Assembly (NCBI GenBank): GCA_963770565.1
Contig: CAVYQE010000011.1
Coordinates: 352,001-416,000 of the forward strand
From: an uncultured Actinomycetota bacterium
Lineage (GTDB): Bacteria; Actinomycetota; Actinomycetes; JAFAQI01
Reading direction: 5' to 3'
DNA length: 64,000 bases
Shown piece by piece: positions 38,646 to 62,082 of the stretch. The stretch's first letter is position 1, and each line of letters begins with the position of its first letter. The translations under genes and the position numbers were made by a program. The notes beneath the pieces were generated by a model that searched no databases, was not told the origin of the DNA, and worked only from the letters and a program-made list of their open reading frames with translations.

Positions 38646-40019
38646 ATGGCTGTACCACCGCCCTCGTCCGGCATCGATGCCGGCCGGGTGGAGGAACTGC
38701 TCGGTCGCGAGCGCGAGCGCTTCATCGCGACCCATCCGCGCTCGATCGACTACCGGCAGCAGGCAGAGCGCTCGCTGCTTTACGGCGTACCGATGAATTG
38801 GATGACCCGCTGGTCGAGCCCCAGCCCGATCGTCGTCGCGGGTGCACACGGGGCCGAGCTCGAGGACATCGACGGCAACACCTATGTCGACCTGTGCCTG
38901 GGCGACACCGGCGCGATGGCTGGTCATGGCCCGAAGCCGGTCGTCGATGCACTCACGGCCCAGATGAGCCGCGGCGCCACATTCATGCTGCCGACCGAGG
39001 ACGCGATCTGGGTCGGCGACGAGATGAGCCGTCGGTTCGGTCTGCCGTACTGGCAGTTCTGCCTGACTGCATCCGATGCGAACCGGTTCGTCCTCCGGCT
39101 GACCCGTCAGATCACCGGCCGGTCGATCATCGTCGTGCACAACTGGTGCTACCACGGCTCGGTCGACGAGACGCTGGCGTCGCTGTCGGACACCGGTACC
39201 GTCGTGCCGCGCGAGGGCAGCGTCGGGCCGTCCCTCGATGTCACAAAGTCGACCCGGGTGGTCGAGATCAACGATCTGGCCGGCCTGGAGAAGGCCCTGG
39301 CCGACGAAGCGGTCGCGTGCGTGCTGGTCGAGCCGGCGCTGACCAACATCGGCATCGTGTTGCCCGATCCCGATTACCACCGCGAGCTGCGCCGAATCAC
39401 CCTCGAGACCGGCACCTTGCTCGTCATCGACGAGACCCACACGATCTGCGCCGGCCCCGGCGGCTACACCGCGCGTGAAGGGCTCGAGCCGGACTTCCTG
39501 ACGATCGGCAAGACGATCGGCGGCGGGGTGCCGGTCGCGGCGTACGGCATGAGTGAAGGCGTGGCCGCGTCGATCGTCGAGCGGACGTTCTGGCAGGAAG
39601 CCGACGTCGGCGGCATCGGCGGAACGCTCGCGGGCAACGCGCTGTCGCTCGCGGCCGCTCGCGCGACGCTGTCCGACGTCCTGACCGCCGCCGCGTTCGA
39701 GCAGATGGAGTCACTCGCGATCCGGCTCTGCGACGGGATCGACTCGGTGATCACGGCCAACCGCGCGCCATGGCACGTGACCCGGCTCGGCTGCCGGGCG
39801 GAGTACCTGTTCAGCCCGGCGATGCCGCGAAACGGCGCCGAGGCCGCCGCTGCCGGCGACGCCGACCTCGACGGTCTGATCCACCTCGCGATGCTCAACC
39901 GGGGGGTCGTGCTCACGCCGTTCCACAACATGGCGCTGATGTCGCCGGCGACGACGGCGGCCCAGATCGATGCGCATACCTCGGCGTTCGAGGAGATCGT
40001 CGCCGACCTGCTGGCCTGA
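38646..40019 (+). CDS. Class III PLP aminotransferase (GSA-aminomutase-like)
   Basis: DIDGNTYVD, YHG, LVIDETHT, TIGKTIGGGVP and GTLAGN. Confidence 0.9.
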   Translation: MAVPPPSSGIDAGRVEELLGRERERFIATHPRSIDYRQQAERSLLYGVPMNWMTRWSSPSPIVVAGAHGAELEDIDGNTYVDLCLGDTGAMAGHGPKPVVDALTAQMSRGATFMLPTEDAIWVGDEMSRRFGLPYWQFCLTASDANRFVLRLTRQITGRSIIVVHNWCYHGSVDETLASLSDTGTVVPREGSVGPSLDVTKSTRVVEINDLAGLEKALADEAVACVLVEPALTNIGIVLPDPDYHRELRRITLETGTLLVIDETHTICAGPGGYTAREGLEPDFLTIGKTIGGGVPVAAYGMSEGVAASIVERTFWQEADVGGIGGTLAGNALSLAAARATLSDVLTAAAFEQMESLAIRLCDGIDSVITANRAPWHVTRLGCRAEYLFSPAMPRNGAEAAAAGDADLDGLIHLAMLNRGVVLTPFHNMALMSPATTAAQIDAHTSAFEEIVADLLA

Positions 40020-40052
40020 CTCCGGCCGGGGCCGCGCCGACCCCGGCGGGAG

Positions 40053-40100
40053 TCGTTGACAACCTCAACGCAGGTTGTTGACAATCCTTCCAGACGACAA
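40053..40100 (+). promoter_or_regulatory. Repeated GACAA / TTGTTGACAA boxes upstream of the eno operon (candidate GntR/FadR operator and promoter)
   Basis: TCGTTGACAA 40053-62, TTGTTGACAA 40075-84 and CAGACGACAA 40091-100 in an AT-richer spacer. Confidence 0.55.
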
Positions 40101-40152
40101 TACCTTGGCCGATCGGGAGCCTCGTTGACGAGGACCGACGCGAGGAGGCTGG

Positions 40153-41451
40153 GTGCCGCACGCCGGCGAACGGGAGATTCGGGCGGTTCACGCCCGAGAG
40201 GTGCTTGACTGCCGTGGTTTGCCCACGGTGCAGGTCGATGTCGTGCTCGGGGACGGGTCGCTCGGCCGCGCCGACGTACCGTCGGGCCGATCGACCGGGG
40301 CCTACGAGGCCCGCGAGCTGCGGGACGGCGGCTCGCGCTATGGCGGGTACGGCGTCCGCCAGGCGGTCGCCAACGTCGTCGACGTGCTCGGGCCGGGGGT
40401 GCTCGGCTGGCCGGCGGATGCCCAGCGCGCTCTCGACGGTCGCCTGATCGAGCTGGACGGCACACCGGACAAGTCGGCGCTGGGCGCCAACGCGCTGCTC
40501 GGGGTCTCACTGGCCGCGGCCCGCGCCGCGGCGACATCGGCCGGGCTGCCGCTGTATCGCTACCTGTCCTCCGACGGTCACCTGCTCCCGGTGCCGTTGG
40601 TGAACCTGATCAATGGCGGACGGCACGCGGCCGGACAGCTGCAGTTCCAGGAATTCATCGTCATCCCGACCGGCGCTCCGACGTTCAGTCAAGCGCTGGC
40701 CGAGAGTTCCGAGGTCAACCTTGCCCTCGGCGAGGTGCTCGAAGCGAAGTACGGCCGCAGTGCGCTCGCTCTCGGCGACGAAGGTGGTTACGTGCCGCCG
40801 GTGTCGGACCCGCGCGAGGCCCTCGAGTTGCTGCACGTCGGTGTCGAGAAGGCCGGCTACACCGGCCGGTTCCAGTACGGGCTCGATTGTGCGGCGACGC
40901 ATTTCTACGACGACGAGGACGGCACCTACCGGTTGGCCGGCACGCCGATGTCGGCCGAGGAGCTGCTCGGGCTCTACCTCGAGCTGATCCGCGACTTCGG
41001 GATCACCACGATCGAGGATCCGTTCGCCGAGGACGACTTCACCAGCTTTGCCGCGTTGACCAAGGAGTCGGGCATCCAGATCGTCGGCGACGACCTGTTC
41101 GTCACCAACACCGCGCGACTGCTTCGCGGGATCGAGGTCGGTGCCGCGAACGCGTTGCTGTGGAAGGTCAACCAGATCGGCACGTTGTCCGAAGCACTCG
41201 ACGCCGCCGCGGTGGCGACCAGTCATGGGTACGGCGTTTGCGTCTCGGAGCGGTCCGGAGAGACCGAGGACCCGATCATCGCCGACCTGGTGGTCGCCCT
41301 CAACGCCGGCCAGATCAAGACCGGCGCACCGGTGCGTGGCGAACGGACGTCGAAATACAACCGGTTGCTGCAGATCGAAGAAGAGCTCGGTACGGCCGCG
41401 CGCTACCCGGGCGCCCAGTTCCCCGCGATCAGCGTGAGCCGCGGCTCGTGA
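40153..41451 (+). CDS. eno: Enolase homolog with non-canonical active-site loops
   Basis: GGRHA, QEF, GDEGG, IEDPF, GDDLFVTN, KVNQIG and QIKTG; but PSGRSTG and SERSGETED. Confidence 0.85.
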   Translation: MPHAGEREIRAVHAREVLDCRGLPTVQVDVVLGDGSLGRADVPSGRSTGAYEARELRDGGSRYGGYGVRQAVANVVDVLGPGVLGWPADAQRALDGRLIELDGTPDKSALGANALLGVSLAAARAAATSAGLPLYRYLSSDGHLLPVPLVNLINGGRHAAGQLQFQEFIVIPTGAPTFSQALAESSEVNLALGEVLEAKYGRSALALGDEGGYVPPVSDPREALELLHVGVEKAGYTGRFQYGLDCAATHFYDDEDGTYRLAGTPMSAEELLGLYLELIRDFGITTIEDPFAEDDFTSFAALTKESGIQIVGDDLFVTNTARLLRGIEVGAANALLWKVNQIGTLSEALDAAAVATSHGYGVCVSERSGETEDPIIADLVVALNAGQIKTGAPVRGERTSKYNRLLQIEEELGTAARYPGAQFPAISVSRGS

Positions 41452-42914
41452 CGATCGAGGCCGCCAAGGCCGATGCGATCGCAGGCGTGGCTGAGCGGGC
41501 GGCCGATCTCGCGCCGATCGCGAACGCCGATCGCCTGCTCGACCACGGCTCCGCGGAGCTGCGGCGGGTCGCCCTCGACGTGGTCGCGGCCGGGCTGCGG
41601 GCGGCCGACCCCGGGGCCGCGGTCGACCGCACGGTCGAGGTCGACGGGAGCCTGCTGCGGGTAGCGGGCCGGACCTTCGACCTCGATGCCGCGGGCTCGA
41701 TCGTCGTACTCGGTGCGGGCAAGGCGAGCCTGCCGATCGCGGCGGCGTTGGAAGCAAAGCTCGGCGACCGGATCAGCCGCGGACTGGTCGTGCGGCGGGC
41801 GGGCGCCCCCGGCACGCTGGAACGCATCGAGGTGATTGACGCCGATCACCCGGTTCCCAGCGAGGCGAGCGTGGTTGCCGGCCGGCGGCTGGTCGAGATG
41901 GCGGCGACCTGTGCGCCCGGCGATCTGCTGATCACCGCGTTCACCGGTGGCTCCTCCGCGCTGGCGTGCCTGCCGCCGGACGGCGTCTCGTTCGAGGCTA
42001 AGCAGGCACTGCACTCGTTGCTGCTCGACTGCGGCGCGTCGATTGCCGAGATCAACGCGGTCCGCAAGCACGTCTCGGCGCTCAAAGGCGGCCGGCTGGC
42101 GATGGTGGCTCGCGGTGCCAGCATCATCAACCTCACACTGTCTGACGTGGTGGGCGATGCGGTCGATCTCTTGTGCGACGTCGTGGTGCAGGACAGCACC
42201 GATCCGGCCGACGCCATCGCCGTGCTCAACCGCTACGGGCTGTGGGACTCCGTCGACCCGCAGATCCGGCACCACCTCACGAGTGACGCGGCAGCCTCGC
42301 CCTCGCTGGCGGATCGCGACATCACGACGTGCGTGCTGGTCACCGGATCGACGGTCGTCGAACGGATGGCGGACCGGGTGCGGGCGATCGGCCGGACCCC
42401 GGTGGTGCTCGGGTCGGCGCTGGCCGGCGACGCGGTCTGCCTCGGCGGGTTGCTCGGGGCCCTCGCCTGTGAGTCGTCGACCCTCGGCCGCCCGTTCCCG
42501 CCGGGCTCGGTGCTTGTCGCGGCCGGTGGTGAGGCCACCGTCTCGATCCACCGCGGGGCGGGTGTCGCGGTCGGACGCGGTGGCCCGAACCAGGAGGAGG
42601 CGATTGCCTTCGCCAAGGCGATCGGCGGCGGCCATGTGCAGGCATCCGGGGTGTTCGTCGACAGCGACGGGTCCGACGGCGGCACGGATGCGGCCGGCGG
42701 CTGTGTCGACGGCGGCACCGTGAGCCGGGCGGCAGAGCTCGGCGTGGATCTTGACTCCGGGATCGCGGCCCACGACTCATCGGCGCTGCTTCAGCAGCTC
42801 GGCGACCTGGTGGTGACCGGACCGACCGGCACGAACATCTCCGACCTGTTGGCGATCGCGATCGACGGAGTCGTCGAGCCGGTGCCCGGCGACTCCGGGG
42901 CGGGCCCGGCATGA
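41448..42914 (+). CDS. Glycerate 2-kinase-like (DUF4147 + MOFRL) protein
   Basis: GAGKAS, HPVP, GGSSAL, INAVRKHVSALKGG, SDVVGD, GGEATV, GGPNQE and GPTGTN. GTGA-coupled to eno. Confidence 0.85.
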   Translation: MTIEAAKADAIAGVAERAADLAPIANADRLLDHGSAELRRVALDVVAAGLRAADPGAAVDRTVEVDGSLLRVAGRTFDLDAAGSIVVLGAGKASLPIAAALEAKLGDRISRGLVVRRAGAPGTLERIEVIDADHPVPSEASVVAGRRLVEMAATCAPGDLLITAFTGGSSALACLPPDGVSFEAKQALHSLLLDCGASIAEINAVRKHVSALKGGRLAMVARGASIINLTLSDVVGDAVDLLCDVVVQDSTDPADAIAVLNRYGLWDSVDPQIRHHLTSDAAASPSLADRDITTCVLVTGSTVVERMADRVRAIGRTPVVLGSALAGDAVCLGGLLGALACESSTLGRPFPPGSVLVAAGGEATVSIHRGAGVAVGRGGPNQEEAIAFAKAIGGGHVQASGVFVDSDGSDGGTDAAGGCVDGGTVSRAAELGVDLDSGIAAHDSSALLQQLGDLVVTGPTGTNISDLLAIAIDGVVEPVPGDSGAGPA

Positions 42915-44530
42915 CCCGGCACGACGTCGTCATCGTCGGCGGCGGCCACAACGGTCTGGTCGCGGCGTTCTACCTGGCTCGGGCCGGCTTGAAGCCGCTG
43001 GTGCTGGAGCGCCGGCCGTTCGTCGGGGGCGCCTGCGTGACCGAGGAGTTCGCGCCCGGGTACCGCGCGTCGACCGGCGCCTATGTTCTCGCGATGCTGA
43101 GGCCGGCGATCTGGCGCGACCTCGAGCTCGACCGGCGCGGGATCGTGGTCAGCCCGGCCGGCCCGTCGCTCAACCTGCTGCCGGACGGTACGTCGCTCCT
43201 GCTCGGCGATGATCCGAACGAGGCGATGGACGCGGTCCGGCACCACTCGGCGCGGGACGCGGTTGCGCTCGGCCGATTCGAGACCGAGCTCGGCCAGCTC
43301 GCCCAGGTGTTGTTGCCGACGATCGACATGGCCGCGCCGGATCCGTCGATGCACCATCTGCGCGACTGGCTGACCGCAGGCCAGATCGCGCGGACCGGGC
43401 TGAAGCAGCGCAAGCAGATCGCCGGCACCCTGCGGTTGCTGGTGGCGTCGGCCGGCGACTACCTCGCGGAGCGGTTCGAGAGCGAAATCGTGAAGGTCGC
43501 ACTTGGTTGGCACGCGATCAACGACAGCCTGGTGGGGCCCTCGAGCCCGGGCACCGGCTACGTGCTCTTGCACGACCACGCATCCGGCGACCCGGACGGC
43601 GGGATCCGGCAGTGGGGCTTCGTCAACGGCGGCATGGGCCGGGTGACCGCGGTGATGGCCGAGGCCGCGATCGAGGCAGGTGCCACGATCCGCACCGACG
43701 CGGAGGTGGCGTCGATCCGCGTCGGCGGCGATCGCGCCACCGGCGTCGTGCTCGTGGGCGGTGAGGAGATCGACTGCGACCTGGTGCTGTCGAACGCCGA
43801 CCCGAAGCGCACCTTCCTCTCGCTGTGCGAGAAGGTCGCCCTGCCTGACGACTTCGTCGCGTCGATGCAGACGTTTCGCTGCGAAGGCACCAGCATCAAG
43901 ATCAACCTCGGCCTCGCGGAGCTGCCGCGGGTGCGCGACGACCGGTCGGGCGATGCGCAGGACTATCACCGCGGAATTCTCGAGATCGGCCCGCCGCTCG
44001 GTGACCTCGACGTCCAGCAGGCGCACGCCCGCCGCGGTACTCCAGGGACCGGCACCCACATCGAGGTCTGTTTCCCCACCGTCCACGACCCCTCGCTCGC
44101 GCCCGAGGGCCGCCACATCGCGACCATCGACGTCAACTCGCAGCCCTACACGCTGGCCGAAGGCGGATGGGACGACATCAAGGAGCAGGTTGCGGACCGG
44201 GTGATCGGCGAGTTGGGTGAGCTGATGCCCAACCTGCCCGGCGCGGTGGTCGCCCGCCAGGTGCTCAGCCCGCTCGACCTCGAGCGGGTGCTCGGGATGA
44301 CCGGTGGGCACGCCCTGCACGGCGACATGACCCTGGACCAGCTGTTCATCTTCCGCCCGACGCTGCATTACTCCGACTACCGCACTCCGGTCGAAGGCTT
44401 GTATCTGTGCGGCGCAGGAACTCATCCCGGTGGTGGTGTGACCGGCGCCAACGGGCGCAACTGCGCGGCCGCAGTGATCTCCGATCGACGCCGGGGTCGG
44501 CGCCGGTGGTCCGGCCGGTCGGCATCATGA
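42911..44530 (+). CDS. FAD-dependent oxidoreductase, phytoene-desaturase/PYROXD2-like
   Basis: IVGGGHNGLVAA, VGGACVTEE, GGMG, DPSLAPEG and LYLCGAGTHPGGGVTG. Confidence 0.9.
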   Translation: MTRHDVVIVGGGHNGLVAAFYLARAGLKPLVLERRPFVGGACVTEEFAPGYRASTGAYVLAMLRPAIWRDLELDRRGIVVSPAGPSLNLLPDGTSLLLGDDPNEAMDAVRHHSARDAVALGRFETELGQLAQVLLPTIDMAAPDPSMHHLRDWLTAGQIARTGLKQRKQIAGTLRLLVASAGDYLAERFESEIVKVALGWHAINDSLVGPSSPGTGYVLLHDHASGDPDGGIRQWGFVNGGMGRVTAVMAEAAIEAGATIRTDAEVASIRVGGDRATGVVLVGGEEIDCDLVLSNADPKRTFLSLCEKVALPDDFVASMQTFRCEGTSIKINLGLAELPRVRDDRSGDAQDYHRGILEIGPPLGDLDVQQAHARRGTPGTGTHIEVCFPTVHDPSLAPEGRHIATIDVNSQPYTLAEGGWDDIKEQVADRVIGELGELMPNLPGAVVARQVLSPLDLERVLGMTGGHALHGDMTLDQLFIFRPTLHYSDYRTPVEGLYLCGAGTHPGGGVTGANGRNCAAAVISDRRRGRRRWSGRSAS

Positions 44531-45912
44531 CGGCCGGGGGCTTCGATGGCCGACCGGTGCCCGATCTCGTGACGGCATTGCCCGGCCCGAAGAGCCAGGC
44601 GATCCGGGCGCGTGAGCGCGCCGTGCTCTATCGCGGCACCGGTGAGCATCTCGCGCCGGTCGTCATGGCCCGCAAGTCCGGCTACGTGATCGAGGACGTC
44701 GACGGCAACCTGTTGCTCGACATGGCGAGTGCCTCGGCGTCAGTGCCGCTTGGCGCGTCCCCGCCGCGGATGGTCGAGGCCGCGTCGGCGGCACTCGCGC
44801 GGTTCGGCAACGAAGACACCCATGCGTTCACCAGCGAGTACGTCGCGCCGCTCGCCGAGCGCCTGATCGAGTTGTCTCCGCCGCGCTGCACCCGGGTCGA
44901 CATCGCGTTGAACGGCACGGAGGCGATCGAGATCGCGGTGCGGCTGATGCGCCGTGCGACCGGCCGGCCGATCATCATCGGCTTCCTCGGTGGCTATCAC
45001 GGCGAGTCCTCGACGACCGCGTCGCTCGGTGCCGAGGCCGCGGAGATCAGCCGTGGGGTCCGGGGTCTCGTACCCGGCTTCGTGCATGTCCCGTATCCCA
45101 ACCCGTATCGCAACCCCTTCGGCGCACCGCGGCCGGGCGGCTGCGGTGACGCGACCATCGACTATCTGCGCGACTTTCTGCTGTTCCACGCCATCGACCC
45201 GGCCGACGTCGCGGGCGTCATCATCGAGCCGGTGCTCGGATCGGGCGGGGTCGTGGTGCCGCCTCCGACGTTCTTCCCGGCGTTGGCGCAGTTGTGCGAC
45301 GAGCACGAATGGCTGCTGTGCGCCGACGAGGTCAAGAGCGGCTGCGGGCGCACCGGCACCTTCCTCGCGGTCGAGCGGCTCGGAGCCGACCCGGACCTGA
45401 TCTGCCTCGGCAAGGGCCTGGGTGGGGGAGTCATGCCGATCGGCGCGGTGCTCGGCTCCGAGCGCGTGCTCGGCGAGTTCGACGACGTCTCGACCGGGAG
45501 CACGTGGGCCTGGCTGCCGGCCAGCTGCGCGGTCGCACTGGTGATGCTCGAGGAGATCACCAATCCCGGTGTGCTCGAGCACGTCAGGGCGATCGAGGCC
45601 AGGTCGCAAGAGGTCTTCGGCCGGTTGCTCGACCGGTTCGACGCAGTCGGCGACGTACGGTCCGTCGGAGCACTGACCGCGGTGGAGTTCGTCACGGATC
45701 GGGACAGCAAGCAGCGCGACACACAGCTTCAGGATCGAGTCGCGCAGGAGATGTTCAACCGCGGCCTGGTCGCGGACTCGAGCACGACGTCGCTGAACAT
45801 CCAACCGTCGTTGATCACACCGCTGGAGGTGATCGACCAGGCGGCGGACATCGTCGCTGACTCGATCCGAGCGGCGATGGCCCAACCGAGATCCGGGGAT
45901 GCCGAGCGCTAG
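44527..45912 (+). CDS. Class III PLP aminotransferase (GabT-like)
   Basis: LPGPKS, DVDGN, NGTEAIE, GYHG, IIEPVLG, DEVKSGCGRTG and LGKGLGGG. Confidence 0.9.
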   Translation: MTAGGFDGRPVPDLVTALPGPKSQAIRARERAVLYRGTGEHLAPVVMARKSGYVIEDVDGNLLLDMASASASVPLGASPPRMVEAASAALARFGNEDTHAFTSEYVAPLAERLIELSPPRCTRVDIALNGTEAIEIAVRLMRRATGRPIIIGFLGGYHGESSTTASLGAEAAEISRGVRGLVPGFVHVPYPNPYRNPFGAPRPGGCGDATIDYLRDFLLFHAIDPADVAGVIIEPVLGSGGVVVPPPTFFPALAQLCDEHEWLLCADEVKSGCGRTGTFLAVERLGADPDLICLGKGLGGGVMPIGAVLGSERVLGEFDDVSTGSTWAWLPASCAVALVMLEEITNPGVLEHVRAIEARSQEVFGRLLDRFDAVGDVRSVGALTAVEFVTDRDSKQRDTQLQDRVAQEMFNRGLVADSSTTSLNIQPSLITPLEVIDQAADIVADSIRAAMAQPRSGDAER

Positions 45913-45927
45913 GAAGGGAGTCGGCCC

Positions 45928-51561: not shown

Positions 51562-51574
51562 GCCGGCCGCAAAC

Positions 51575-52855
51575 TCAGGACGAGTTGACCATGCCTCGGC
51601 CCAGCCAGTCGTTGCGATCACGAACGCCGGGGAGCGCGAAGAAGTAGCCGCCGCCGACCGGGCTGACGTAGTCGACCATCGGCTCGCCGACCAGGCGGGC
51701 CTGGACGGCTTCGAACTGCCGCTTGATGTCTTGCTGAAAGCAGTTGAAGACCAGGCCCAGGTCGAGGTTGCCGTTGAGGTCGACGCCCCGGTCGTAGTTG
51801 TAGCCACGGCGGTAGATCCGGCTCGGCTCGGTGCGGTTGGTGCGCGGGTTGGCCAGTCGGATGTGCGCGTCGAGCGGAATCACCTTGCCGAGTGGATCGG
51901 CGTGGTAGTCGGGGAGGTCGGCTTCGGTGACACCGTCGAGCGGCGCGCCGGTGTCGCGGAACCGGCCGATCATCGTCTGCTGCTCGTGCAGTGAGACCCG
52001 GTCCCAGAACTCGATGAACATCTTGATGATCCGGCAGACGTGGTAGCTGCCACCGATCGCCCAGGTCGGCTCGCCGTGACCTTTCTCGACCCAGAGCAGC
52101 TGTCTGGAGACGGCCGGTCGATCGATCTCGGGGTTGGCGATGCCGTCTTTGAAACCGAGGTGGTTGCGCGGTACGCCGGACGGTCGCGACGGCGAGATGA
52201 AGCCGTCGATCCGCCAGCGAATCGCCATCCCGCCGCGGGTGTGCTTGGCCAGATCGCGCAGCGCGTGGATCGCCGTATCGGCGCTGCCCGCGCAGATCTG
52301 CGCGATTAGGTCGCCGCCGGTCTGGGCCGGGTCGAGGTTGTCGTTGGGGAACGAGCGCATCGGGGTGAGATGGCGCGGTTTCGCCCCGGCCAGGCCGTAG
52401 CGGTGGTCGAACAGGGTCGACCCGACCCCGACCGTCATCGTGAGGCCGTCGGCCGGTACGTCGGGTCCGAGCGTGCCGCTGTCGGCAGGTGGCGCGCCGA
52501 CTCCGAGGTTGCGCGGCGTGCCGCCGGCGGTGAGGAAGCGGGCCCGGTGGGTGATCGTGTGGAACAGCTCGACGAGCTCGTTGCGATGCTCGGCCGTCAC
52601 GTCGAACGCGGCGAAGCAGGCGGCCGGTGGCGGCGGAGTGCTGATGCCCGCTTGGTGGGCGCCGTGGAACGGCACCGGCGGCAGGTGCGCGGCCGGATCG
52701 CGAATGGTCGGAACCTCAGGTGGTTCGTCAGCCTCGCCGGGGCGCGGATGCGCTCGCGTCGCGGCCTCGGCCGGCGTGAGTCCCGCCCCCGCGAGCGCCG
52801 CACCGGCCGCCACGATCCCGGAGCGCCCGAGGAACTGCCGGCGGTCGATGGTCAT
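51575..52855 (-). CDS. efeB: Tat-exported Dyp-type peroxidase (EfeB-like)
   Basis: DRRQFL Tat motif, FHGAHQAGI, GFKDGIAN, AHIRLANPR and IYRRGYNY. Confidence 0.92.
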   Translation of the reverse strand: MTIDRRQFLGRSGIVAAGAALAGAGLTPAEAATRAHPRPGEADEPPEVPTIRDPAAHLPPVPFHGAHQAGISTPPPPAACFAAFDVTAEHRNELVELFHTITHRARFLTAGGTPRNLGVGAPPADSGTLGPDVPADGLTMTVGVGSTLFDHRYGLAGAKPRHLTPMRSFPNDNLDPAQTGGDLIAQICAGSADTAIHALRDLAKHTRGGMAIRWRIDGFISPSRPSGVPRNHLGFKDGIANPEIDRPAVSRQLLWVEKGHGEPTWAIGGSYHVCRIIKMFIEFWDRVSLHEQQTMIGRFRDTGAPLDGVTEADLPDYHADPLGKVIPLDAHIRLANPRTNRTEPSRIYRRGYNYDRGVDLNGNLDLGLVFNCFQQDIKRQFEAVQARLVGEPMVDYVSPVGGGYFFALPGVRDRNDWLGRGMVNSS

Positions 52856-54072
52856 GACTTTCCGATCGTCAGCAGGTCGGGCACCGGCGCCAGGATGTTC
52901 AGGACGCGGCCGACGGCCGAGTCGACCGCGTCACGACTGCGCCGGGGCAGGTCGGCGACCGCGACCCACGCGCCGCTCTTCGCTCGGGTCGCGTTCACCG
53001 CTGCGGCCAGCCTGGTCAGCGCCTTGCGAGCGTGCGAGACGAGGTGTGACGAGCGCGGCCTGATCAGTTGGGCCAGCAGGCCCAGCAGCTCGCGGGTGCC
53101 CGCAACGTCAGCCCGCACTGACGCCAGGCTGGTGCCGCTGCCGTAGTCGTCCTGCCCGGTGAGGGAGTCGCGCAGCGCGTCCTCGAGGATCTCGTGGCAA
53201 CGCAGTGGCAGGCCGCTGACACCTGCGGTGGTCAGCGGGAGCCACTGCGAGATCGGCGGCGTCGTCAGCCGCGACACGGCGCGGGCGAGAGCTTTGGCAT
53301 CCGTAGTTGCGGCAGCGATGTCCGCGCGGGTCCACAGGTCGTACTCGACTTTGTGGAAGCCGGTGAACCTCGGGCTCGACGTGCCGCCGACCAGCCCGGC
53401 AGTCGTGCCGTCGATGGTGCGGCCCAGGGTGCCGAATGCGCTGTAGGCACCGTCGTCCTGACCGATCCGAAGCCAGGTCAGGTGCGCGGTGAGCGATGCC
53501 GTCTTCGCGTCGGCGACGTCGTCGCCGGCCAGGTCGGTCTCGAGCGCGTTCGTTTGGCTGGTGAGCAGGGCGAACTCGTGGCCGACGTAGGCCCGGTAGG
53601 ACCTCATCGCGGGTGTCAGTTCGCCCCGGGTCACCGGTACGACCGGTGGCCCCGGTCCCCCGTGGTTCGGGTCGACCGGCACGGTCTGGACGTCGGACAC
53701 TCGTGACGGCCGGCCGGTCAGGTCGCAGCCCCAGACGTATCGCCGGCCCCGGGCGAGGGTGACCACGAGCTCGCGCACCGAGTGCGGCTTGAGGTGTTTG
53801 ACGGTCGCGACGATCGCGTTCGACCGGGGATGGAACAGGTAGATCGTGGCCGAGTACGCCGACCGGTTGGTGATCGCGAAGTGCGCGCGGCCGGGGTTGG
53901 GGGCATACCACCTCGGCGCGCAGGTCGTGGTGGTCACGTAGATCCGCTGGCCGCGAAGGTGGCCGCCGACCTGACCGGAGGCGGCAGCACCGCCCGCCGC
54001 CGGAAGTGACCCGTACGTCAGTGTGGTGGTGGCGATCGTCGCCACCACCACACTGCTCGTTCGATACCGCAC
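52852..54072 (-). CDS. efeO: EfeO/EfeM-like iron-binding protein (cupredoxin-like + imelysin/M75 domain)
   Basis: Signal peptide, N-terminal beta domain with two Cys, FTGFHKVEYDLW (HxxE) and DDYGSGT. Confidence 0.8.
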   Translation of the reverse strand: MRYRTSSVVVATIATTTLTYGSLPAAGGAAASGQVGGHLRGQRIYVTTTTCAPRWYAPNPGRAHFAITNRSAYSATIYLFHPRSNAIVATVKHLKPHSVRELVVTLARGRRYVWGCDLTGRPSRVSDVQTVPVDPNHGGPGPPVVPVTRGELTPAMRSYRAYVGHEFALLTSQTNALETDLAGDDVADAKTASLTAHLTWLRIGQDDGAYSAFGTLGRTIDGTTAGLVGGTSSPRFTGFHKVEYDLWTRADIAAATTDAKALARAVSRLTTPPISQWLPLTTAGVSGLPLRCHEILEDALRDSLTGQDDYGSGTSLASVRADVAGTRELLGLLAQLIRPRSSHLVSHARKALTRLAAAVNATRAKSGAWVAVADLPRRSRDAVDSAVGRVLNILAPVPDLLTIGKS

Positions 54073-54107
54073 AGTTGGTTACCTCGCGCGAGCCGTCGCT
54101 GACATGG

Positions 54108-55358
54108 CTAGCGGTTCGTATAGACATCCGATCCGAACGACACGACCTTCGGCTGCTGGGCATCGCCGAGGTGATGCAGCCCGAAGATGTCCTCGATGCT
54201 GCGCAGCAGCGAGAAGTGGTTGTAGGGGTTCGTGGTCGTCGTACCGGGCTTGACGAACTTCGACAGCACGATCGCGCCCACCCGGCCACCGCCCGGGCCG
54301 TAGAGTCCCGGCTCGTTCATGTTCGGGTGCGACGGGGCGGAGTAGCCAGTGCTGACGCGTTCGCCGCAGCAGGCGCCGGCGTCTTCGTCGGACCCCGACT
54401 CGTCGAAGTTGATCACGATCATGCCGTTCGCCTTGTAGGCCGGCGAGTTCGTGATGATCGGGATCCACTTCTTCAGGAACTCGTTGACGCGGATCAGTCC
54501 GCCCTTGCGGCCGTCCTGGCACTTCGGGGTGTCATGGCCGTCGGCGCAGGTGTTGGGCGTGATGAACGAGTAGTTCGGGGTCGTCGAGATCTTCTTCAGG
54601 TCCTTCTGCAGTGGCTTGAGGGTCAACACGTGCGAGTCGCAATAGGCCTGGTTGTCGATGATCGACTTGAAGTAGACGAACGGGTCGTGTCGGGTCGCGT
54701 AGCTGTCGGTCTTCGGCCCCGTCGAGTCGGTCAGGTCCTCGGCGCCGAGCGCCGGGTGGCCACACGCCGGGCCGTTGGCGGTCTCGACGGTCTTGTCGCG
54801 GTGCGGAAGGTTGCCCATGTCCTGCTCGTAGGCCCGCCAGGTGAGGCCCTTGGCGGTGAGCTGGTTGGCAAGCGTCTTGACGTACTTCGGGTAGACGCAG
54901 CCCTCGCCGGAGAGCTGGTGGTACTTCGTCCACTTGTCGAAGTTCTCGCCGCCGAACTGGATGAACGGCTCGTACAGACCGCAGTCCTGGCCGAGCTCGT
55001 AGTTGGTGTTCTGTCCTGAGATCATCGCGGTGTAGTTGTCGAGGCTGTCGTGCCCGATCCCGTAGTACTGCGTGAGCAGGGCGCCCTTGGCCGGCAACGT
55101 CTTGGCGAGGTACGGCGCCTGCTTTTCGCCGGGCTTTCCGAAGCTGTATCCGAAGGATTCATTTTCCAGCGTGATGATCCACACGTGCTTGATGCCCGGC
55201 GGCGTGGAGGCCTTGGCCGGGTGCGCGGCTGCCGCCGGGTGGGCGGCGCCGCGGGTGTGTGCAATGGCCGCGGGAACGGCGACGACCAGGCCGACAACCA
55301 GCGCGAAGGCAGCGACCGCCGTGGTCGCGAGACGGTGGGTCTTGAGGGTCTTCGGCAC
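54108..55358 (-). CDS. Secreted phosphoesterase (acid phosphatase/phospholipase C family)
   Basis: IKHVWIITLENESF, HDSLDNY, YATRHDPF, TPNTCADGHD, NFDE and YNHFSLLRSIED. GTG after GAGGAG. Confidence 0.88.
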   Translation of the reverse strand: MPKTLKTHRLATTAVAAFALVVGLVVAVPAAIAHTRGAAHPAAAAHPAKASTPPGIKHVWIITLENESFGYSFGKPGEKQAPYLAKTLPAKGALLTQYYGIGHDSLDNYTAMISGQNTNYELGQDCGLYEPFIQFGGENFDKWTKYHQLSGEGCVYPKYVKTLANQLTAKGLTWRAYEQDMGNLPHRDKTVETANGPACGHPALGAEDLTDSTGPKTDSYATRHDPFVYFKSIIDNQAYCDSHVLTLKPLQKDLKKISTTPNYSFITPNTCADGHDTPKCQDGRKGGLIRVNEFLKKWIPIITNSPAYKANGMIVINFDESGSDEDAGACCGERVSTGYSAPSHPNMNEPGLYGPGGGRVGAIVLSKFVKPGTTTTNPYNHFSLLRSIEDIFGLHHLGDAQQPKVVSFGSDVYTNR

Positions 55359-55534
55359 GGTGTGCTCCTCTGTTTGGTGGGTCGCTAGGCGCCACTCGAG
55401 CGGCAAAGTAGCAGATTGCCTACAACAAGACAAGCCGATAATCTGATTGCCGTCAGCATAGTTCGGGGCGAGCTCCGGCTGAGGGATGCCCGGATCGACG
55501 CCGCGCTGGATGCATTCGCGAAGTTGGAGGTCGG

Positions 55535-56962
55535 GTGACCGAGATCGACGCGACTCCGTCGTGGCCGAGCGTTCACACCGAGCTGCCCGGCCCGCGCAGC
55601 CGCGCGTTCTTCGAGCGGCTCGACTCGCGGGTGATCGCGGGGATGACCGACCACGACGAGGTTCCCTTCGCCGAGGCCCGCAAGGTCGGCTCGCTCATCG
55701 AGGATCTCGACGGCAACGTCTTCGCCGACCTGGTGTCGGCGTGGGGCGCGGCGCCGTTCGGGGGCTCACCCGCTGATGTCTTCGAGGCAGTAACGACCGC
55801 GCAACGGCGCTATGGGATGGAGATCACCAACTACATCCCGAACGAGCCCGCTCTCGCCCTCGCTGAGCGGCTGCTCGACGTTGCCCCGCCGGGCATCACC
55901 CGGGTCGCGAGTGCCCTGAGCGGCACGCTCGCCGTCGAGGCCGGCGTGAAGCTGGCCCGCGAGTCGACCGGCCGGCCGATCATCCTGACCTTCCACGGTC
56001 AGTACCACGGCGAGGCGACCTACCTCACCGCGAGCGCGTCGAGCGACCTGTCCGAGGTGGCGAGCTCTAGTGCGGCGTATGTCGGCGGGCTGGTGTTCGC
56101 GCCGTACCCGAACTCGTTCCGGGCGCCGTTCCACCGCGGTCCCGGACCGTACGACGACCTGATGTATCTCGACTACATCGAGGACTGGCTACTGGTACAT
56201 CAGGTCGAGCCGGAGCAGATCGCCGGCGTGCTGATCGAGCCGGTGCTCGGCGAGGGCGGCATCCTGGTGCCATCGGAGGCCTTCTGGGCGCGACTGACCG
56301 CGATGTGCCGGCGCTGGGGCTGGAAGCTGATCCTCGACGAGGTGCAGACCGGCATGGGTCGCTGCGGCACGATCTTCGCCTGCGAGCGATGGAATCTCGA
56401 GCCCGACATCGTCTTGCTGGGCAAGGGGATCACCGCGGGCGGCCAGCCGATCGCGGCGGTGCTCGGCACCGAAGCAGTGATGGCTGACTCCGACGTGCAC
56501 GGAGCCGGAACCTTCGCCTGGACGCCGGCTGCGTGCGCGGGTGCGGTGGCCGGCATCGATCGGCTGCTCAACAGCGACGTCCTGGCCAATGTCGCGACCA
56601 TCGAGGCGATCGCGCACGCCGAGCTCGATCCGCTGATCGAGGAGATCGAGCAGGTCGGTGACGTGCGCGCGGCCGGCGCGCTGATCGGCGTGGAGTTCGT
56701 CACCGATCGCGAGACGATCACGCCCGCGCCGGCCTTCCACCGGTCCGTGCACCAGGCCGCGATGGCCCGCGGCGTACTCGGCATCACCCAGTGGGGGAAG
56801 TGGGTCTACCGGCTGCAGCCGGCGCTGACGACGGCGCCGGAGCTGTTCGAGTGGTCGTGCCGGGCGATCGCGGACGCGATCCGCGAAGTCGCCGCAGACC
56901 CGCCGGAGGAGCCGGCCAGTCTGCTCGACCGCGGCAGCCCGGGCGGCACCCGCCGCCGCTAG
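55535..56962 (+). CDS. Class III PLP aminotransferase (GabT-like)
   Basis: LPGPRS, DLDGN, YHGE, IEPVLGEGG, DEVQTGMGRCG, LGKG and GTF. Confidence 0.9.
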   Translation: MTEIDATPSWPSVHTELPGPRSRAFFERLDSRVIAGMTDHDEVPFAEARKVGSLIEDLDGNVFADLVSAWGAAPFGGSPADVFEAVTTAQRRYGMEITNYIPNEPALALAERLLDVAPPGITRVASALSGTLAVEAGVKLARESTGRPIILTFHGQYHGEATYLTASASSDLSEVASSSAAYVGGLVFAPYPNSFRAPFHRGPGPYDDLMYLDYIEDWLLVHQVEPEQIAGVLIEPVLGEGGILVPSEAFWARLTAMCRRWGWKLILDEVQTGMGRCGTIFACERWNLEPDIVLLGKGITAGGQPIAAVLGTEAVMADSDVHGAGTFAWTPAACAGAVAGIDRLLNSDVLANVATIEAIAHAELDPLIEEIEQVGDVRAAGALIGVEFVTDRETITPAPAFHRSVHQAAMARGVLGITQWGKWVYRLQPALTTAPELFEWSCRAIADAIREVAADPPEEPASLLDRGSPGGTRRR

Positions 56963-57125
56963 TGTCCTGCGTCAGAAGTTGCCTGCCACCACTTGTGGCG
57001 CCCGACCGCCGCCTCGCGGCGTTGTCGTCGTCGGCGGTAGCTCCACTACCGCGCTCCTCCTTCGCCTTGCGAGTCCGGCGCCCGGATCACCACAACTGGC
57101 GGCGAACTTCTGACGCAGGACGCTA
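56960..57125. mobile_element. MITE-like element between convergent genes
   Basis: 17-bp perfect inverted repeat gtcctgcgtcagaagtt (56964-80) / aacttctgacgcaggac (57105-21), extending imperfectly. Flanked by TAG/CTA, with an internal hairpin gcggtag..ctaccgc. Confidence 0.65.
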
Positions 57126-57560: not shown

Positions 57561-57616
57561 AGCGTGTCCCGGCCGCTCGCGCGCCGCATCAGGGGAGTCC
57601 CCGATCCGCACCCTGA

Positions 57617-57711
57617 CCCGTTTCAGCACACGACGCCCCTGCGCCGGCGACGCAACTGGCGCGGGTCGGCCGAAACGGCGCGAACCAACGACAGTTGTGT
57701 GCTGAAACGGG
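57617..57711. repeat. 95-bp REP-like element with 15-bp perfect inverted repeat
   Basis: cccgtttcagcacac (57617-31) / gtgtgctgaaacggg (57697-711), directly after the aroA stop. Confidence 0.72.
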
Positions 57712-57715
57712 GGAG

Positions 57716-58999
57716 CTAGGCGCCCGCGGTCAGGAGCGCGAGGTGGTCGGCGAACGCCGGGTAGCTGGTCGCGACCGCGTCGAACCCGTCGATCCGCGAC
57801 TCGCCGTGCGCCGCGGTCGCCGCGACAGCAGCCGCCATCGCGATCCGGTGATCGCCGTGGCTGTCGACCCGCGCCGGCTGCAGCCCGTGACTGCCGGTGA
57901 TGTCGAGACCGTCGGGGTGCTCGGTGACGCTGACGCCGAAACCGGTCAGCATCGCCGCGATGGTCGCGACCCGGTCGGACTCCTTGACCCGCAGCTCGGC
58001 GGCGCCGCGGATCCGGGTGACGCCGGCTGCCAGGGCGGCCGCGATCGCGAGCGCGGGGATCTCGTCGACGAGGCCCGGCACTTCTTCCGGCGTGATGTCG
58101 GTGGCACGCAGGTCAGTGCCGCGAACCCCTACGGCGAACGCACCGCGCGCCTCGCTCGTGACGCTGATCTCGGCGCCCATCCGGCGCAGGACGTCGAGGA
58201 AACCGTCGCGAGCCGGTCCGAGATAGAGGTTGGTGATCGTCACGTCGCTGCCCGGCATGGCCGCGGCGCCGGCGATCCAGAACGCCGCCTGAGACGGGTC
58301 GCCTGGCACCGATTCGTCGAGCGGCTTCAGGGTCGACCGACGTACCGAGGTTGTCGTGCCTTCCACGGTGAGATCGGCGCCACGCGCGAGCAGCATCTCT
58401 TCGGTATGCCGCCGGCTGACCGCCGGTTCGCGGACCACGGTGGTGCCGTCCGCGGCCAGCCCGGCGAGCAGGATCGCCGACTTCACCTGCGCCGACGCGA
58501 CCGGCGTGGAGTAGTCGATGCCGTGCAGACCGCCGCCAGTGATGACGAGGGGTGCGAACGACCCACCGGACGGACCGCCGATCTCCGCGCCCATCAGCCG
58601 CAGCGGGATGGCGATCCGATCCATCGGACGGCTTCGGATCGACGCGTCTCCGTCCAGTTCGGTGCGGAACGCCAAGCCGGCGGCGACGCCGGCCAGCAGC
58701 CGGATCCCGGTCCCGGAGTTGCCGACGTCGATCACCTGGTCCGCCGGTCGCAGCCGGCCACCGGTGATGCGTACGCCGTCATCCGCCCGCGCCACGTCGG
58801 CGCCCAGCGCGACGACGGCGGCGAGCGTGTGGCCGACATCCGCGCCGTCGGAGAGCCCGTGCACGCTGCTCGTGCCGTCCGCCAACGCCGACAGCAAGAT
58901 CGCCCGATGCGAGATCGACTTGTCGCCGGGGACCTCGAGCCGGCCGGTCAATCGGGTGGGACCGGTCACCGACAGCGACCGCGCGATGTCGTCCGTCAT
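57716..58999 (-). CDS. aroA: EPSP synthase, class II-type
   Basis: PGDKSISHR, GNSGT, RPM, ASAQVKSA, RRHTE, DEIP, ELRVKESDR and DHRIAM. Confidence 0.93.
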   Translation of the reverse strand: MTDDIARSLSVTGPTRLTGRLEVPGDKSISHRAILLSALADGTSSVHGLSDGADVGHTLAAVVALGADVARADDGVRITGGRLRPADQVIDVGNSGTGIRLLAGVAAGLAFRTELDGDASIRSRPMDRIAIPLRLMGAEIGGPSGGSFAPLVITGGGLHGIDYSTPVASAQVKSAILLAGLAADGTTVVREPAVSRRHTEEMLLARGADLTVEGTTTSVRRSTLKPLDESVPGDPSQAAFWIAGAAAMPGSDVTITNLYLGPARDGFLDVLRRMGAEISVTSEARGAFAVGVRGTDLRATDITPEEVPGLVDEIPALAIAAALAAGVTRIRGAAELRVKESDRVATIAAMLTGFGVSVTEHPDGLDITGSHGLQPARVDSHGDHRIAMAAAVAATAAHGESRIDGFDAVATSYPAFADHLALLTAGA

Positions 59000-59119
59000 G
59001 GCTGTGTCGAGGGCGGCCGATCGCGCCACTCCGCCGCTACCATAGTTGTTGCATTGTAAGCAATTTGGCCATGGCTCGGCCGGGGGCGTCGGCGCGGGGT
59101 GGTCGAGAAGGGATCCGCG

Positions 59120-59824
59120 GTGACTGCTCCGTCCTCCGGTGGGTCTGGGTCGCTCGAACCGCTCCAGCTGCAGAGCACGCCGGCCCTGATCGCGGACCGG
59201 CTCCGCGCGGAGATCCTCGAGGGTGCCTTTCCCGCCGATTCGCAGCTGTCAGAGATGGAGCTGGCCCGCCAGCTGCGGGTCAGTCGTGGCCCGATTCGCG
59301 AGGCGATGCAGCGACTGATCCAGGAAGGCCTGCTTCGGGCCGAACGTAACCGGGGGGTCTTCGTGGTCGAGCTCGACCACGACGATGCCCGTGACGTTTA
59401 CCTCGCCCGCGGCGCGGTCGAGCGCACCGCGGCAGCGATCGTGACGCAGCAAGCCTCAGCGGAGGCGCTCGCGTCGCTTCAGCAGGTGGTCGACCGGCTC
59501 ACCGCGTCGCTGGACGGGGACTGGGCGGACGTCATCACCGAGGACCTCGCGTTTCACCAGACCCTGGTCGAGGCGGCTGGCAGCCTCCGGCTGTCCCGGA
59601 TGTTCCGCACCCTGCTTGCCGAGACCCGGCTGTGCCTGATCCGGCTCGAGCCGTTCTACGACGGCCGGTCCGATGTCGTGGCGGAGCACCAGGACATCCT
59701 CGACGCGATTCGCTCCGGTGACCTGGCCACTGTCGACCGCCTGATCAGCCTGCACATGGACTCTTCCGCGGCGCGTTTGTCGGTGCCGAAGACCGGAAGT
59801 GCGGGCGACGCACCCGCGGACTGA
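59120..59824 (+). CDS. GntR-family (FadR/FCD) regulator
   Basis: LSEMELARQLRVSRGPIREA wHTH; DLAFH, EHQDI and LH FCD residues. Divergent from aroA. Confidence 0.93.
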   Translation: MTAPSSGGSGSLEPLQLQSTPALIADRLRAEILEGAFPADSQLSEMELARQLRVSRGPIREAMQRLIQEGLLRAERNRGVFVVELDHDDARDVYLARGAVERTAAAIVTQQASAEALASLQQVVDRLTASLDGDWADVITEDLAFHQTLVEAAGSLRLSRMFRTLLAETRLCLIRLEPFYDGRSDVVAEHQDILDAIRSGDLATVDRLISLHMDSSAARLSVPKTGSAGDAPAD

Positions 59825-60808: not shown

Positions 60809-60842
60809 CCAGTCGACGGTGTCTGGGGCCGACACTGTGAGG

Positions 60843-62069: not shown

Positions 62070-62082
62070 GACCATCGATGCT

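Follow-up and report, generated by a model that had tools for sequence, protein, structure and literature searches.

A conserved gene cluster with a variant enolase in an uncultured actinobacterium: a candidate GntR-controlled regulon for amine catabolism

Class II (MOFRL) glycerate 2-kinase and enolase together make up the lower part of glycerate-forming routes, e.g., the archaeal non-phosphorylative Entner-Doudoroff branch, and the tartrate utilisation genes ttuABCDE of Agrobacterium vitis are an example of a catabolic cluster with its own glycerate kinase and pyruvate kinase. The genes described here lie in a 64,000-nucleotide stretch of DNA (positions 352,001 to 416,000 of contig CAVYQE010000011.1; hereafter, the window) from an uncultured Actinomycetota bacterium. 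They include an operon encoding a variant enolase (ENO), a class II glycerate 2-kinase-like kinase (GK), a flavin adenine dinucleotide (FAD) oxidoreductase (FADox), a class III aminotransferase (AT2) and an ATP-binding cassette (ABC) importer, with two further class III aminotransferases (AT1 and AT3), an AroA (5-enolpyruvylshikimate-3-phosphate, EPSP, synthase) and a GntR regulator nearby. The locus resembles the glycerate-forming systems in being an apparent catabolic cluster with its own lower-glycolysis enzymes, and in that GK and ENO are nearest to archaeal proteins (PDB entries 1x3l and 2pa6). It differs from them in that the upstream part comprises a flavin amine oxidoreductase and class III aminotransferases, the starting material is probably an imported nitrogen compound, and the enolase belongs to a distinct variant clade.

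Other described systems share single features with this locus. In Pseudomonas aeruginosa, PlcH/PchP and choline-betaine catabolism under GbdR provide a case in which the enzyme that frees an amino alcohol, a secreted phosphoesterase of the PF04185 type, shares its regulation with the genes for taking up and breaking down that amino alcohol; an exported PF04185-type phosphoesterase is also in the predicted regulon here, but the regulator family, enzymes and end product are different and there are no choline or betaine genes in the window. In the amino-alcohol kinase pathways that end in class III-fold phospho-lyases (ethanolamine-phosphate, 5-phosphohydroxylysine and aminopropanol-phosphate lyases), a kinase likewise stands next to class III pyridoxal phosphate (PLP) enzymes, and a FADox homolog on an Agrobacterium plasmid occurs in such a context; the kinase of the window, however, is a MOFRL glycerate kinase rather than an APH-type phosphotransferase, and an enolase follows. 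Clusters for 2-aminoethylphosphonate catabolism (PMC8154272) comprise a PhnR regulator, a PhnSTUV Pot-like importer and a PbfA lyase. Similarities to those clusters are that phnR_burk is the best model for the GntR regulator, that a Pot-like importer is found in many versions of the cluster, and that there is a PbfA-related class III-fold PLP enzyme (243 bits). Nevertheless, all these scores are below cut-off, no PhnW/PhnX/PhnA-type gene was found among the annotated window genes, and such a pathway has no step for GK or ENO. None of the serine cycle, polyamine, ectoine, opine and aminophosphonate pathways accommodates all the genes. The first-pass annotation of this DNA, which was made from the sequence without database searches, had not recognised the gene set as a described pathway, and no description of it was found in the literature searched, in which coverage of subscription journals was thin.

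On balance, and with moderate confidence, we interpret the cluster as a regulon that moves between genomes by horizontal transfer and is under repression by a GntR protein of the FCD type, for uptake and catabolism of an amine or amino alcohol whose carbon would be delivered to phosphoenolpyruvate (PEP) via a dedicated ENO. Sequence comparisons indicate that the cluster is real, conserved and mobile, and that its genes are predicted to be co-regulated. A scan of a genome collection seeded with FADox confirmed 346 relatives, the best 80 of which were kept and corresponded to 78 loci; these were searched by tblastn with all window proteins (E <= 1e-20, at least 50% coverage). Among the 55 loci whose FADox had at least 51% identity, AT2/AT3-type genes were present in 41, GntR-like genes in 23, ENO and GK together in 15, and one or other of ENO and GK in 18, with L006 and L013 ending at GK because their contigs end there. 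Less frequent were AT1 (9/55), aroA (2/55), the phosphoesterase (2/55), EfeB (2/55) and EfeO (1/55). None of the AT2/AT3-type, GntR, ENO, GK, AT1, aroA or phosphoesterase genes was identified in the 23 more distant loci (FADox of at most 43% identity, mostly Acidobacteriota). The lineages with the cluster included Nocardioides, Marmoricola, a Mycobacteriales metagenome-assembled genome (MAG), Conexibacter and other Thermoleophilia, a Dormiibacterota MAG and a Verrucomicrobiia MAG. Seeding with ENO gave a consistent picture: a 65–67% identical enolase was found in 3 of 400 evenly sampled Actinomycetota genomes (12 of these are unpublished and were counted only as non-holders), all other best matches being at most 59% identical, and in all three holders a divergent AT1 was followed by ENO, GntR, GK, a Pot-type ABC importer and FADox. 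The co-occurrence across genomes on which the first-pass annotation had staked its proposal was therefore seen with both seeds, and extended across phyla (Actinomycetota, Dormiibacterota and Verrucomicrobiota). In the long-read MAG loci L060, L009, L010 and L123, several cluster genes were frameshifted or miscalled on the opposite strand, which probably reflects assembly indels rather than pseudogenes.

A palindrome, GATTGTnnACAATC, was identified at promoters of cluster genes, three of them in the window. The observation in the first-pass annotation that similar boxes precede several units was borne out, as TTGNNNNCAA occurred nine times in the window versus 3.1 expected, a number reached by none of 100 shuffles, and the boxes at 40075, 55416 and 59054 were found to be part of a conserved operator. 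A sharper operator pattern occurred six times versus 1.6 expected, and two of 100 shuffles reached six. The full palindrome GATTGTTGACAATC preceded ENO in five related loci (L007, L008, L009, L027 and L029), and the site in front of the window GntR, ATTGTAAGCAAT, was present in identical form before GntR in L007, L010/L144 and L132. Matches to TTGTNNNCAAT numbered 24 in the 4.43-Mb genome, with three in this 19-kb region and one in a paralogous cluster on another contig (C1), and 29 (at 18 sites) in the 862,560 bp of loci L006–L060, where all were 5' of cluster genes. The genes behind these sites were those for ENO, GntR, FADox, an IlvD-like protein, ABC components and AT1, and included genes of the Dormiibacterota and Verrucomicrobiia loci. 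Based on the related loci and the genome itself, the units are predicted to be under a common, conserved operator, and the location of the operator over the -35 box of the ENO operon suggests repression. The GntR protein itself matched PF00392 (63 bits) and PF07729 (FCD; 87.3 bits). Its best NCBIfam model was phnR_burk (TIGR03338; 139.9 bits, under the cut-off of 271.5), the model of the aminoethylphosphonate-associated PhnR, which we count toward an amine context. A PDB search with GntR gave no functional lead (best match 2hs5, 75 bits). Boxes of the TGATTGC type upstream of AT1 and AT3 were considered as a further motif and rejected, having too few matches and no palindrome.

The paralogous cluster (C1 at approximately 1,194,800–1,222,000; L090, L091) contains a GntR (67% identical), a FADox paralog (57%), a short-chain dehydrogenase/reductase (SDR), an SMP-30-like protein and a Dpp binding protein (55%). 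It adjoins a set of genes resembling glycine/sarcosine/betaine reductase (PF09338, GRDB, DUF5940, thioredoxin and GRDA) with selB, selD and selA. The GrdA of this set reads CFVUT with an in-frame TGA as selenocysteine, i.e., a selenoprotein reductase system in a soil actinobacterium.

The enolase was the most distinctive component of the cluster. Three enolases are encoded in the genome (4.43 Mb, 94.9% complete), with scores of 635, 528 and 501 bits to TIGR01060 (cut-off 300), and the window copy, which has both Enolase_N and Enolase_C domains, is the lowest-scoring of these and only 50% and 46% identical to the other two. As the third copy in the genome with a clade of its own, it is an extra variant enolase, in line with the first-pass annotation, and not the sole housekeeping one. 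Its best solved relative is the enolase of M. jannaschii (2pa6, 480 bits). The motifs GDEGG, the D in LDxA, IEDP, GDDL, KxNQIGT and IKTG, which we take to be those for metal ligands and catalysis, were intact in the window ENO and 13 orthologs. However, the alignment with 2pa6 revealed three changes, SHRSGETED to SERSGETED, SGASTG to SGRSTG and DAAASEF to DCAATHF. The otherwise conserved His of SHRSGETED, presumably the equivalent of the catalytic His373 of yeast, was a Glu in 20/20 cluster enolases (the window and 19 loci), and the Glu of "SEF" was a His in the same 20/20; Arg in SGRSTG was matched by pattern in 15 of the 19 others. Eight comparators (both paralogs from this genome and six best-hit enolases from other genomes, one of them unpublished) all kept the His and the Ala of SGASTG, and the Glu of "SEF" was retained in the five of them that were matched by pattern. 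A literature search on the role of the enolase His returned nothing useful.

In a tree of 79 enolases, 19 variant ENO sequences formed a clade with SH-aLRT (approximate likelihood-ratio test) support of 97, outside the bacterial clade (support 100) that held both paralogs from this genome. Within the ENO clade, Marmoricola branched with Conexibacter and Dormiibacterota with Verrucomicrobiia, and this branching, which does not track taxonomy, points to gene transfer. Among 128 near-full-length library representatives, 30 were without the His, and a His occupied the "SEF" column in 12 of these 30 versus 5 of the 98 that keep it; the two positions therefore look coupled. The best full-length library representative for ENO (57% identity) keeps the His, so that ENO does not constitute a 50% cluster of its own, and the representatives that carry Glu were few or partial. 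Based on these comparisons, ENO may still run enolase chemistry with a re-arranged active site. A natural enolase clade without an otherwise conserved residue would be of use in testing ideas on enolase catalysis and on functional divergence in an enolase subgroup. The second extra enolase of the genome (C11:824321-825628, 528 bits; L002, L092) has canonical motifs and is located beside ABC-transporter-like genes.

GK had the two-domain architecture of class II glycerate 2-kinases (PF13660, 218.9 bits; PF05161, 86.9 bits), and its PDB matches were 1x3l (252.7 bits) and 2b8n (185.3 bits). It contained the motif GGEATV, and GGE(A/T)TV, which we presume to be functional, was present in 11 of 12 cluster GKs. 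Its scores to the NCBIfam equivalog models, both of which represent archaeal lineages, were below cut-off (177.9 vs 550 and 123 vs 670 bits). An informative replacement was observed in four related loci (L011, L012, L019 and L034), in which an IlvD-like dihydroxy-acid dehydratase (638 bits, cut-off 644) was located directly behind the same operator, ENO and GK were absent, and the only enolase of the genome was one of 50–55% identity. ENO with GK and the IlvD-like dehydratase are accordingly best regarded as alternative modules under one operator, each converting a 2,3-dihydroxy acid to a 2-oxo or enol-phospho acid, and this sequence pattern makes glycerate, or a compound much like it, the likelier intermediate, on its way to PEP or pyruvate. 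The end steps would then most likely be glycerate to 2-phosphoglycerate to PEP. Neither a glyoxylate carboligase (Gcl) nor EutB was found in the 94.9%-complete genome, which indicates that the classical route from C2 units does not supply the glycerate; the best match to Gcl (372.6 bits, cut-off 711.2) adjoins ilvD and is therefore probably an acetolactate synthase. A second class II glycerate kinase of this genome (C1:355946-356685; L088, L089) is split over two reading frames, by either a frameshift or an assembly error.

FADox passed the Pfam Amino_oxidase model (64 bits, cut-off 19.8) and Rossmann-type models, but was below the cut-offs for CrtI (TIGR02734, 125.5 vs 238.1 bits) and CrtO (247.9 vs 1000 bits). 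The names given to it in the ESM Atlas were generic (PYROXD2 or phytoene desaturase), and a PDB search gave no functional lead, the best match being CrtI (4dgk, 62 bits). Plasmid-borne homologs (34–40% identity) were found in amine contexts, some among class III aminotransferases, GcvT-like and Rieske enzymes and polyamine ABC genes, and others beside a phosphotransferase, an aminotransferase and a gamma-aminobutyraldehyde dehydrogenase. On plasmids of Rhizobium sp. SL42 (L084) and Fuscovulum ytuae (L085), two FADox homologs stand in tandem, and behind them come genes for a GcvT-like aminomethyltransferase, Rieske oxygenases and an ABC importer of the polyamine type, a set that looks like an N-demethylation cluster for a methylated amine. 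Tandem FADox pairs were also seen in the Acidobacteriota loci L071–L083.

Recurrence in related loci and the shared operator support the assignment of all three aminotransferases to the system, as the first-pass annotation had it. AT1 scored 644.8 bits to PRK07046 (cut-off 425) and 124.9 bits to Aminotran_3, had 5ykr as its best PDB match (456 bits), and was located beside ENO in eight FADox-seeded loci as well as in L123–L125. AT2 and AT3 reached no NCBIfam equivalog cut-off. Orthologs of AT3 with 62–75% identity were present in 12 FADox-seeded loci, and AT3 adjoins AroA/GntR in L132 and L134.

Together, these findings can be arranged into a pathway. An exported phosphoesterase (PF04185 in the window, twin-arginine (Tat)-exported PhoX-like proteins elsewhere) would release the compound from a phosphoester outside the cell, after which the lipoprotein binding protein and ABC importer would take it up. 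The PYROXD2/CrtI-like flavoprotein and the class III PLP enzymes (AT2, AT3 and AT1) would strip or rearrange the nitrogen, leaving the carbon skeleton as a 2,3-dihydroxy acid, in the simplest case D-glycerate, which the class II glycerate kinase would phosphorylate to 2-phosphoglycerate and ENO would dehydrate to PEP. GntR would act on the operator at the ENO -35 box and at the phosphoesterase/AT3 and aroA/GntR promoters, and its binding would be relieved by the substrate or a pathway intermediate. The conversion of an imported amine or amino alcohol via a C3 acid to PEP, as put forward in the first-pass annotation, is still the best reading, with hypothetical steps upstream of glycerate; its alternative suggestion, that PEP is supplied for enolpyruvyl transfer, was left without direct support. 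If correct, the regulon would have at its center the bacterial relatives of PYROXD2, an orphan family of flavoproteins, and would suggest that soil bacteria draw nitrogen and carbon from a so far overlooked source that is freed by exported phosphatases. The presence of the regulon in the cultured Conexibacter stalactiti KCTC 39840 (L028) makes these ideas testable in culture.

Several observations weigh against this interpretation. The window set has no obvious enzyme for going from an amine to glycerate, the expected reductase or aldehyde dehydrogenase being absent from it; aldehyde dehydrogenases (families f57 and f84) and a beta-hydroxyacid dehydrogenase (f78) were found in some relatives only. 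No characterised bacterial member of the FADox family was found, the fold of AT2 and AT3 would equally allow a lyase or racemase, and ENO, being without the conserved active-site His, may not be an ordinary enolase. The binding protein is nearest to NikZ-type nickel binders (best PDB match 8efz, 125 bits) and has EfeO/EfeB-like genes as neighbors. The ENO tree was from a quick IQ-TREE search. With respect to regulation, operator function is a prediction, the motif was built from two of the three sites in the window, and consequently only the third site and the other genomes provide independent support; in addition, the open reading frames (ORFs) of related loci were called by a crude caller based on third-position G+C, and four operator sites fell inside the 5' part of called ORFs, whose starts were possibly set too far upstream.

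The strongest of the alternatives, although we consider it quite unlikely, is that GK and ENO act as a kinase and a beta-eliminating lyase on an amino analogue of glycerate, e.g., isoserine (3-amino-2-hydroxypropanoate), which would be converted via 2-phospho-isoserine to PEP and ammonium, with FADox and the aminotransferases making the 3-amino-2-hydroxy acid. Such a route would parallel the logic of the amino-alcohol kinases and phospho-lyases, and would need neither of the enzymes missing from the minimal gene set, a reductase or an aldehyde dehydrogenase. The ENO substitutions (His to Glu, the "SEF" Glu to His and usually an Arg in SGRSTG) can be read in the same way, as a carboxylate near C3 would perhaps suit an ammonium leaving group. 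The location of AT1 in the glutamate-1-semialdehyde (GSA) mutase/beta-transaminase branch, and of the Agrobacterium plasmid FADox homolog beside a phosphotransferase and a class III enzyme, also fit. However, isoserine is rare in nature, the remaining enolase motifs are all intact, and the replacement of ENO and GK by an IlvD-like dehydratase in four loci fits a 2,3-dihydroxy acid better. The pairing of His loss with a His in "SEF" could also represent a relocated catalytic His, and hence ordinary enolase chemistry.

The glycerate-to-PEP route that we prefer has no step for AroA. AroA (TIGR01356, 380.1 bits, cut-off 287.25) was the only protein over the family cut-off in the 94.9%-complete genome, the next match having 59.8 bits, and so the notion that this aroA might be an extra, non-housekeeping copy had to be abandoned. 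The proposed link of a class II aroA to the cluster fared better, in that the protein is class II-like and its gene is found beside GntR in seven genomes. The motifs RxHxE, GDK and SAQxK were present and NxTR was absent, versus none of the four, which we take to be class II markers, in nine full-length native-type sequences. The best PDB matches, 12 of them at E <= 1e-40, included the EPSP synthases of Coxiella burnetii (3roi, 300.7 bits), Streptococcus pneumoniae and Agrobacterium CP4. The C. burnetii enzyme is the class II reference in a preprint that also describes class II EPSP synthases as generally tolerant of glyphosate, a PEP-competitive inhibitor (bioRxiv 10.1101/2020.05.27.118265). 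While AroA is thus like the described class II enzymes in its best matches and in three of the four motifs, it differs from them in occurring in an actinobacterial lineage whose relatives have a 31–37% identical aroA and in being fixed beside a catabolic regulator.

Of 25 relatives searched, the AroA type of the window was found in G403 (91% identical), G401 (72%) and G404 (a broken copy), all of the same genus; 20 had only the 31–37% identical aroA, including same-genus G402 and unpublished G422, and two incomplete genomes had no aroA match. Within the genus, G401 and G403 have class II-like aroA only and G402 the native type only, and the class II-like gene appears to have replaced the native-type gene within this genus. 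A class II-like aroA lies divergently beside the cluster GntR in the window, G401, G403, G404, G425 (L010), G426 (L026) and G428 (the genome of L009), with the phosphoesterase downstream in G401 and G428. G425 and G426 have an additional native-type aroA elsewhere, and G428, as in the window genome, has the class II-like gene only. AroA is therefore a xenolog that appears to have arrived with GntR and to work now as the EPSP synthase of the cell; as a sole aroA, it cannot be tightly repressed. The link between aroA and the cluster is real. The finding that a class II EPSP synthase moves among soil actinobacteria in the company of a catabolic regulator, and takes the place of the native enzyme, would bear on the spread of glyphosate-tolerant EPSP synthase types. 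A more speculative extension, which we think unlikely to be correct in full, is an undescribed amine-to-PEP route that gene transfer has carried into at least three phyla. The substrate of its MOFRL kinase and of its enolase, re-tooled near the active site (His to Glu, Glu to His, Ala to Arg), would be a 2-hydroxy acid with a substituent at C3, e.g., a 3-amino glycerate analogue, and the class II EPSP synthase would be co-carried as a second PEP enzyme suited to the intermediates, having displaced the native aroA in the genus.

Two PEP-handling enzymes in non-native versions, tied to one regulator, would also be expected if ENO and AroA were insensitive isozymes accompanying a pathway that breaks down (or, less probably, makes) a compound or intermediate resembling PEP or 2-phosphoglycerate and toxic to the ordinary enzymes, and so serve protection rather than flux. 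AroA as a second copy in G425 and G426, its likeness to a class generally tolerant of glyphosate according to that preprint, the active-site changes of ENO and the resemblance of the regulator to an aminophosphonate regulator are all compatible with this. We nonetheless regard it as improbable. The invariable pairing of GK with ENO suggests that flux passes through the two enzymes, and AroA was present in only 2/55 loci. The binding-protein-dependent importers suggest catabolism, and no core biosynthetic enzyme such as PEP mutase was found among the called and annotated window genes. We know of no such inhibitor.

In the preferred interpretation, the exported phosphoesterase and the importer would deliver the amine or amino alcohol. 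The binding protein has an LTGC lipobox, its PDB search gave no functional lead, and in most versions of the cluster a PotD/PotF-like importer replaces the Dpp type. In L012 the operator is followed by the dehydratase, phosphoesterase, EfeO and EfeB, an order that mirrors the minus-strand unit of the window and indicates that the exported proteins belong to the regulon. PhoX-like phosphatase genes were present in 11 related loci, with clear Tat signals at the start in 6 of the 11. Other accessory genes, identified by clustering the ORFs of the loci and annotating representatives, encoded M20 deacylases, amidohydrolases, Kbl-like enzymes and a glucose-1-dehydrogenase-like SDR with an SMP-30-like protein. 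With regard to the EfeUOB system, the window encodes an imelysin-domain protein and a Dyp peroxidase that carries a Tat signal, and no FTR1/EfeU was identified among annotated genes at 34–64 kb.

The imelysin-domain protein and the peroxidase allow a different assignment, in which importer and exported EfeO/EfeB-like proteins serve uptake of a metal or metallophore and the enzymes recycle or degrade an amine-carboxylate metallophore. The EfeO/EfeB-like genes do directly follow the importer, and are found again in L012, and the best matches of the binding protein are of the NikA/NikZ type (TIGR02294, 148.5 bits; 8efz, as above), with CntA at 97.9 bits. Nevertheless, these matches are far under the family cut-offs, the importer is of the PotD/PotF-like polyamine type in most cluster versions, neither a metalloregulator nor EfeU was found among annotated window genes, and EfeB and EfeO are rare among the 55 loci; we therefore consider a metallophore system very unlikely. 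A chance neighborhood of housekeeping and unrelated genes, for which a sole aroA and the opposite-strand genes that interrupt the block might be cited, is scarcely conceivable given conservation of the cluster across phyla, the common operator, the separate ENO clade and the AroA-GntR adjacency in seven genomes.

The features of the amine regulon as we interpret it are listed in Table 1. Genes were picked from the ORF list, Pfam/NCBIfam matches and third-position G+C (G+C of the window is 65–71%), and all the genes named in the first-pass annotation were present by Pfam/NCBIfam. The tight coupling that it described was also confirmed, with start/stop overlaps of 4 bp at eno/kinase (GTGA, 41448-41451), kinase/oxidoreductase (ATGA, 42911-42914) and oxidoreductase/aminotransferase (ATGA, 44527-44530), and the Dpp-type importer directly after AT2 following a 15-bp gap, with three more 4-bp overlaps at 46890, 47849 and 49885. 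This operon thus spans 40153-51561. The two further aminotransferases, aroA and GntR do flank it, but the 21-kb stretch is not the single block that had been proposed, as a minus-strand unit of exported proteins (51575-55358) lies inside, aroA is on the minus strand, and a 133-bp promoter/operator gap separates AT1 from eno.

Table 1. Features of the cluster and its surroundings, with positions in the window.
Feature	Position	Strand	Basis or remark
TetR regulator	36834-37382	+	Pfam TetR_N/TetR_C_28; membership in cluster uncertain
Major facilitator superfamily (MFS) transporter	37220-38560	+	Pfam MFS_1; upstream of AT1; membership in cluster uncertain
AT1, class III aminotransferase, GSA-aminomutase/beta-transaminase-like subfamily	38646-40019	+	NCBIfam PRK07046
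Predicted promoter and operator of ENO operon	40055-40103	+	operator GTTGTTGACAAT at 40074-40085, overlapping TTGACA -35 box
ENO, variant enolase, third paralog in genome	40153-41451	+	TIGR01060
GK, class II (DUF4147/MOFRL) glycerate 2-kinase-like kinase	41448-42914	+	Pfam, PDB similarity
FADox, PYROXD2/CrtI-like FAD oxidoreductase, Amino_oxidase fold	42911-44530	+	Pfam
AT2, class III aminotransferase (or same-fold PLP lyase)	44527-45912	+	Pfam, 267.7 bits
Dpp/Opp-type ABC importer	45928-51561	+	permeases 45928-46893 and 46890-47852, fused double ATPase 47849-49888, lipoprotein family-5 binding protein 49885-51561
Dyp/EfeB peroxidase	52855-51575	-	twin-arginine (Tat) signal
Imelysin/EfeO-like protein	54072-52852	-	imelysin domain
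PF04185 phosphoesterase	55358-54108	-	signal peptide; likely start GTG at 55358 preceded by GAGGAG
Operator-like site ATTGCCTACAAC	55415-55426	.	divergent spacer phosphoesterase/AT3
AT3, class III aminotransferase	55535-56962	+	Pfam, 262 bits
Membrane ORF, 168 codons	between AT3 and aroA	-	
AroA, class II-like EPSP synthase	59029-57716	-	TIGR01356; divergent from GntR
Predicted operator ATTGTAAGCAAT	59053-59064	.	in 69-bp aroA/GntR intergenic region
GntR/FadR-subfamily (FCD) regulator, presumed regulon repressor	59099-59824	+	Pfam GntR and FCD

The order TetR-MFS-AT1 was repeated in L007 only. Just upstream of the TetR and MFS genes, a TTGGTCGCAA box is located at 34450, by a PAS-GGDEF-EAL gene (34478-36721). 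No Rfam RNA family was identified at 34000-64000. The sequencing runs listed for this DNA were 12 DNA runs and no RNA run, with 11 of the 12 labelled as soil or rhizosphere metagenome. Downstream of GntR (59873-62784) there are genes for an NAD-dependent epimerase, a glycoside hydrolase of family GH5 and a fatty-acid hydroxylase-like protein, and the epimerase or GH5 gene is also a neighbor of GntR in same-genus genomes (L132–L134), and not in other lineages.

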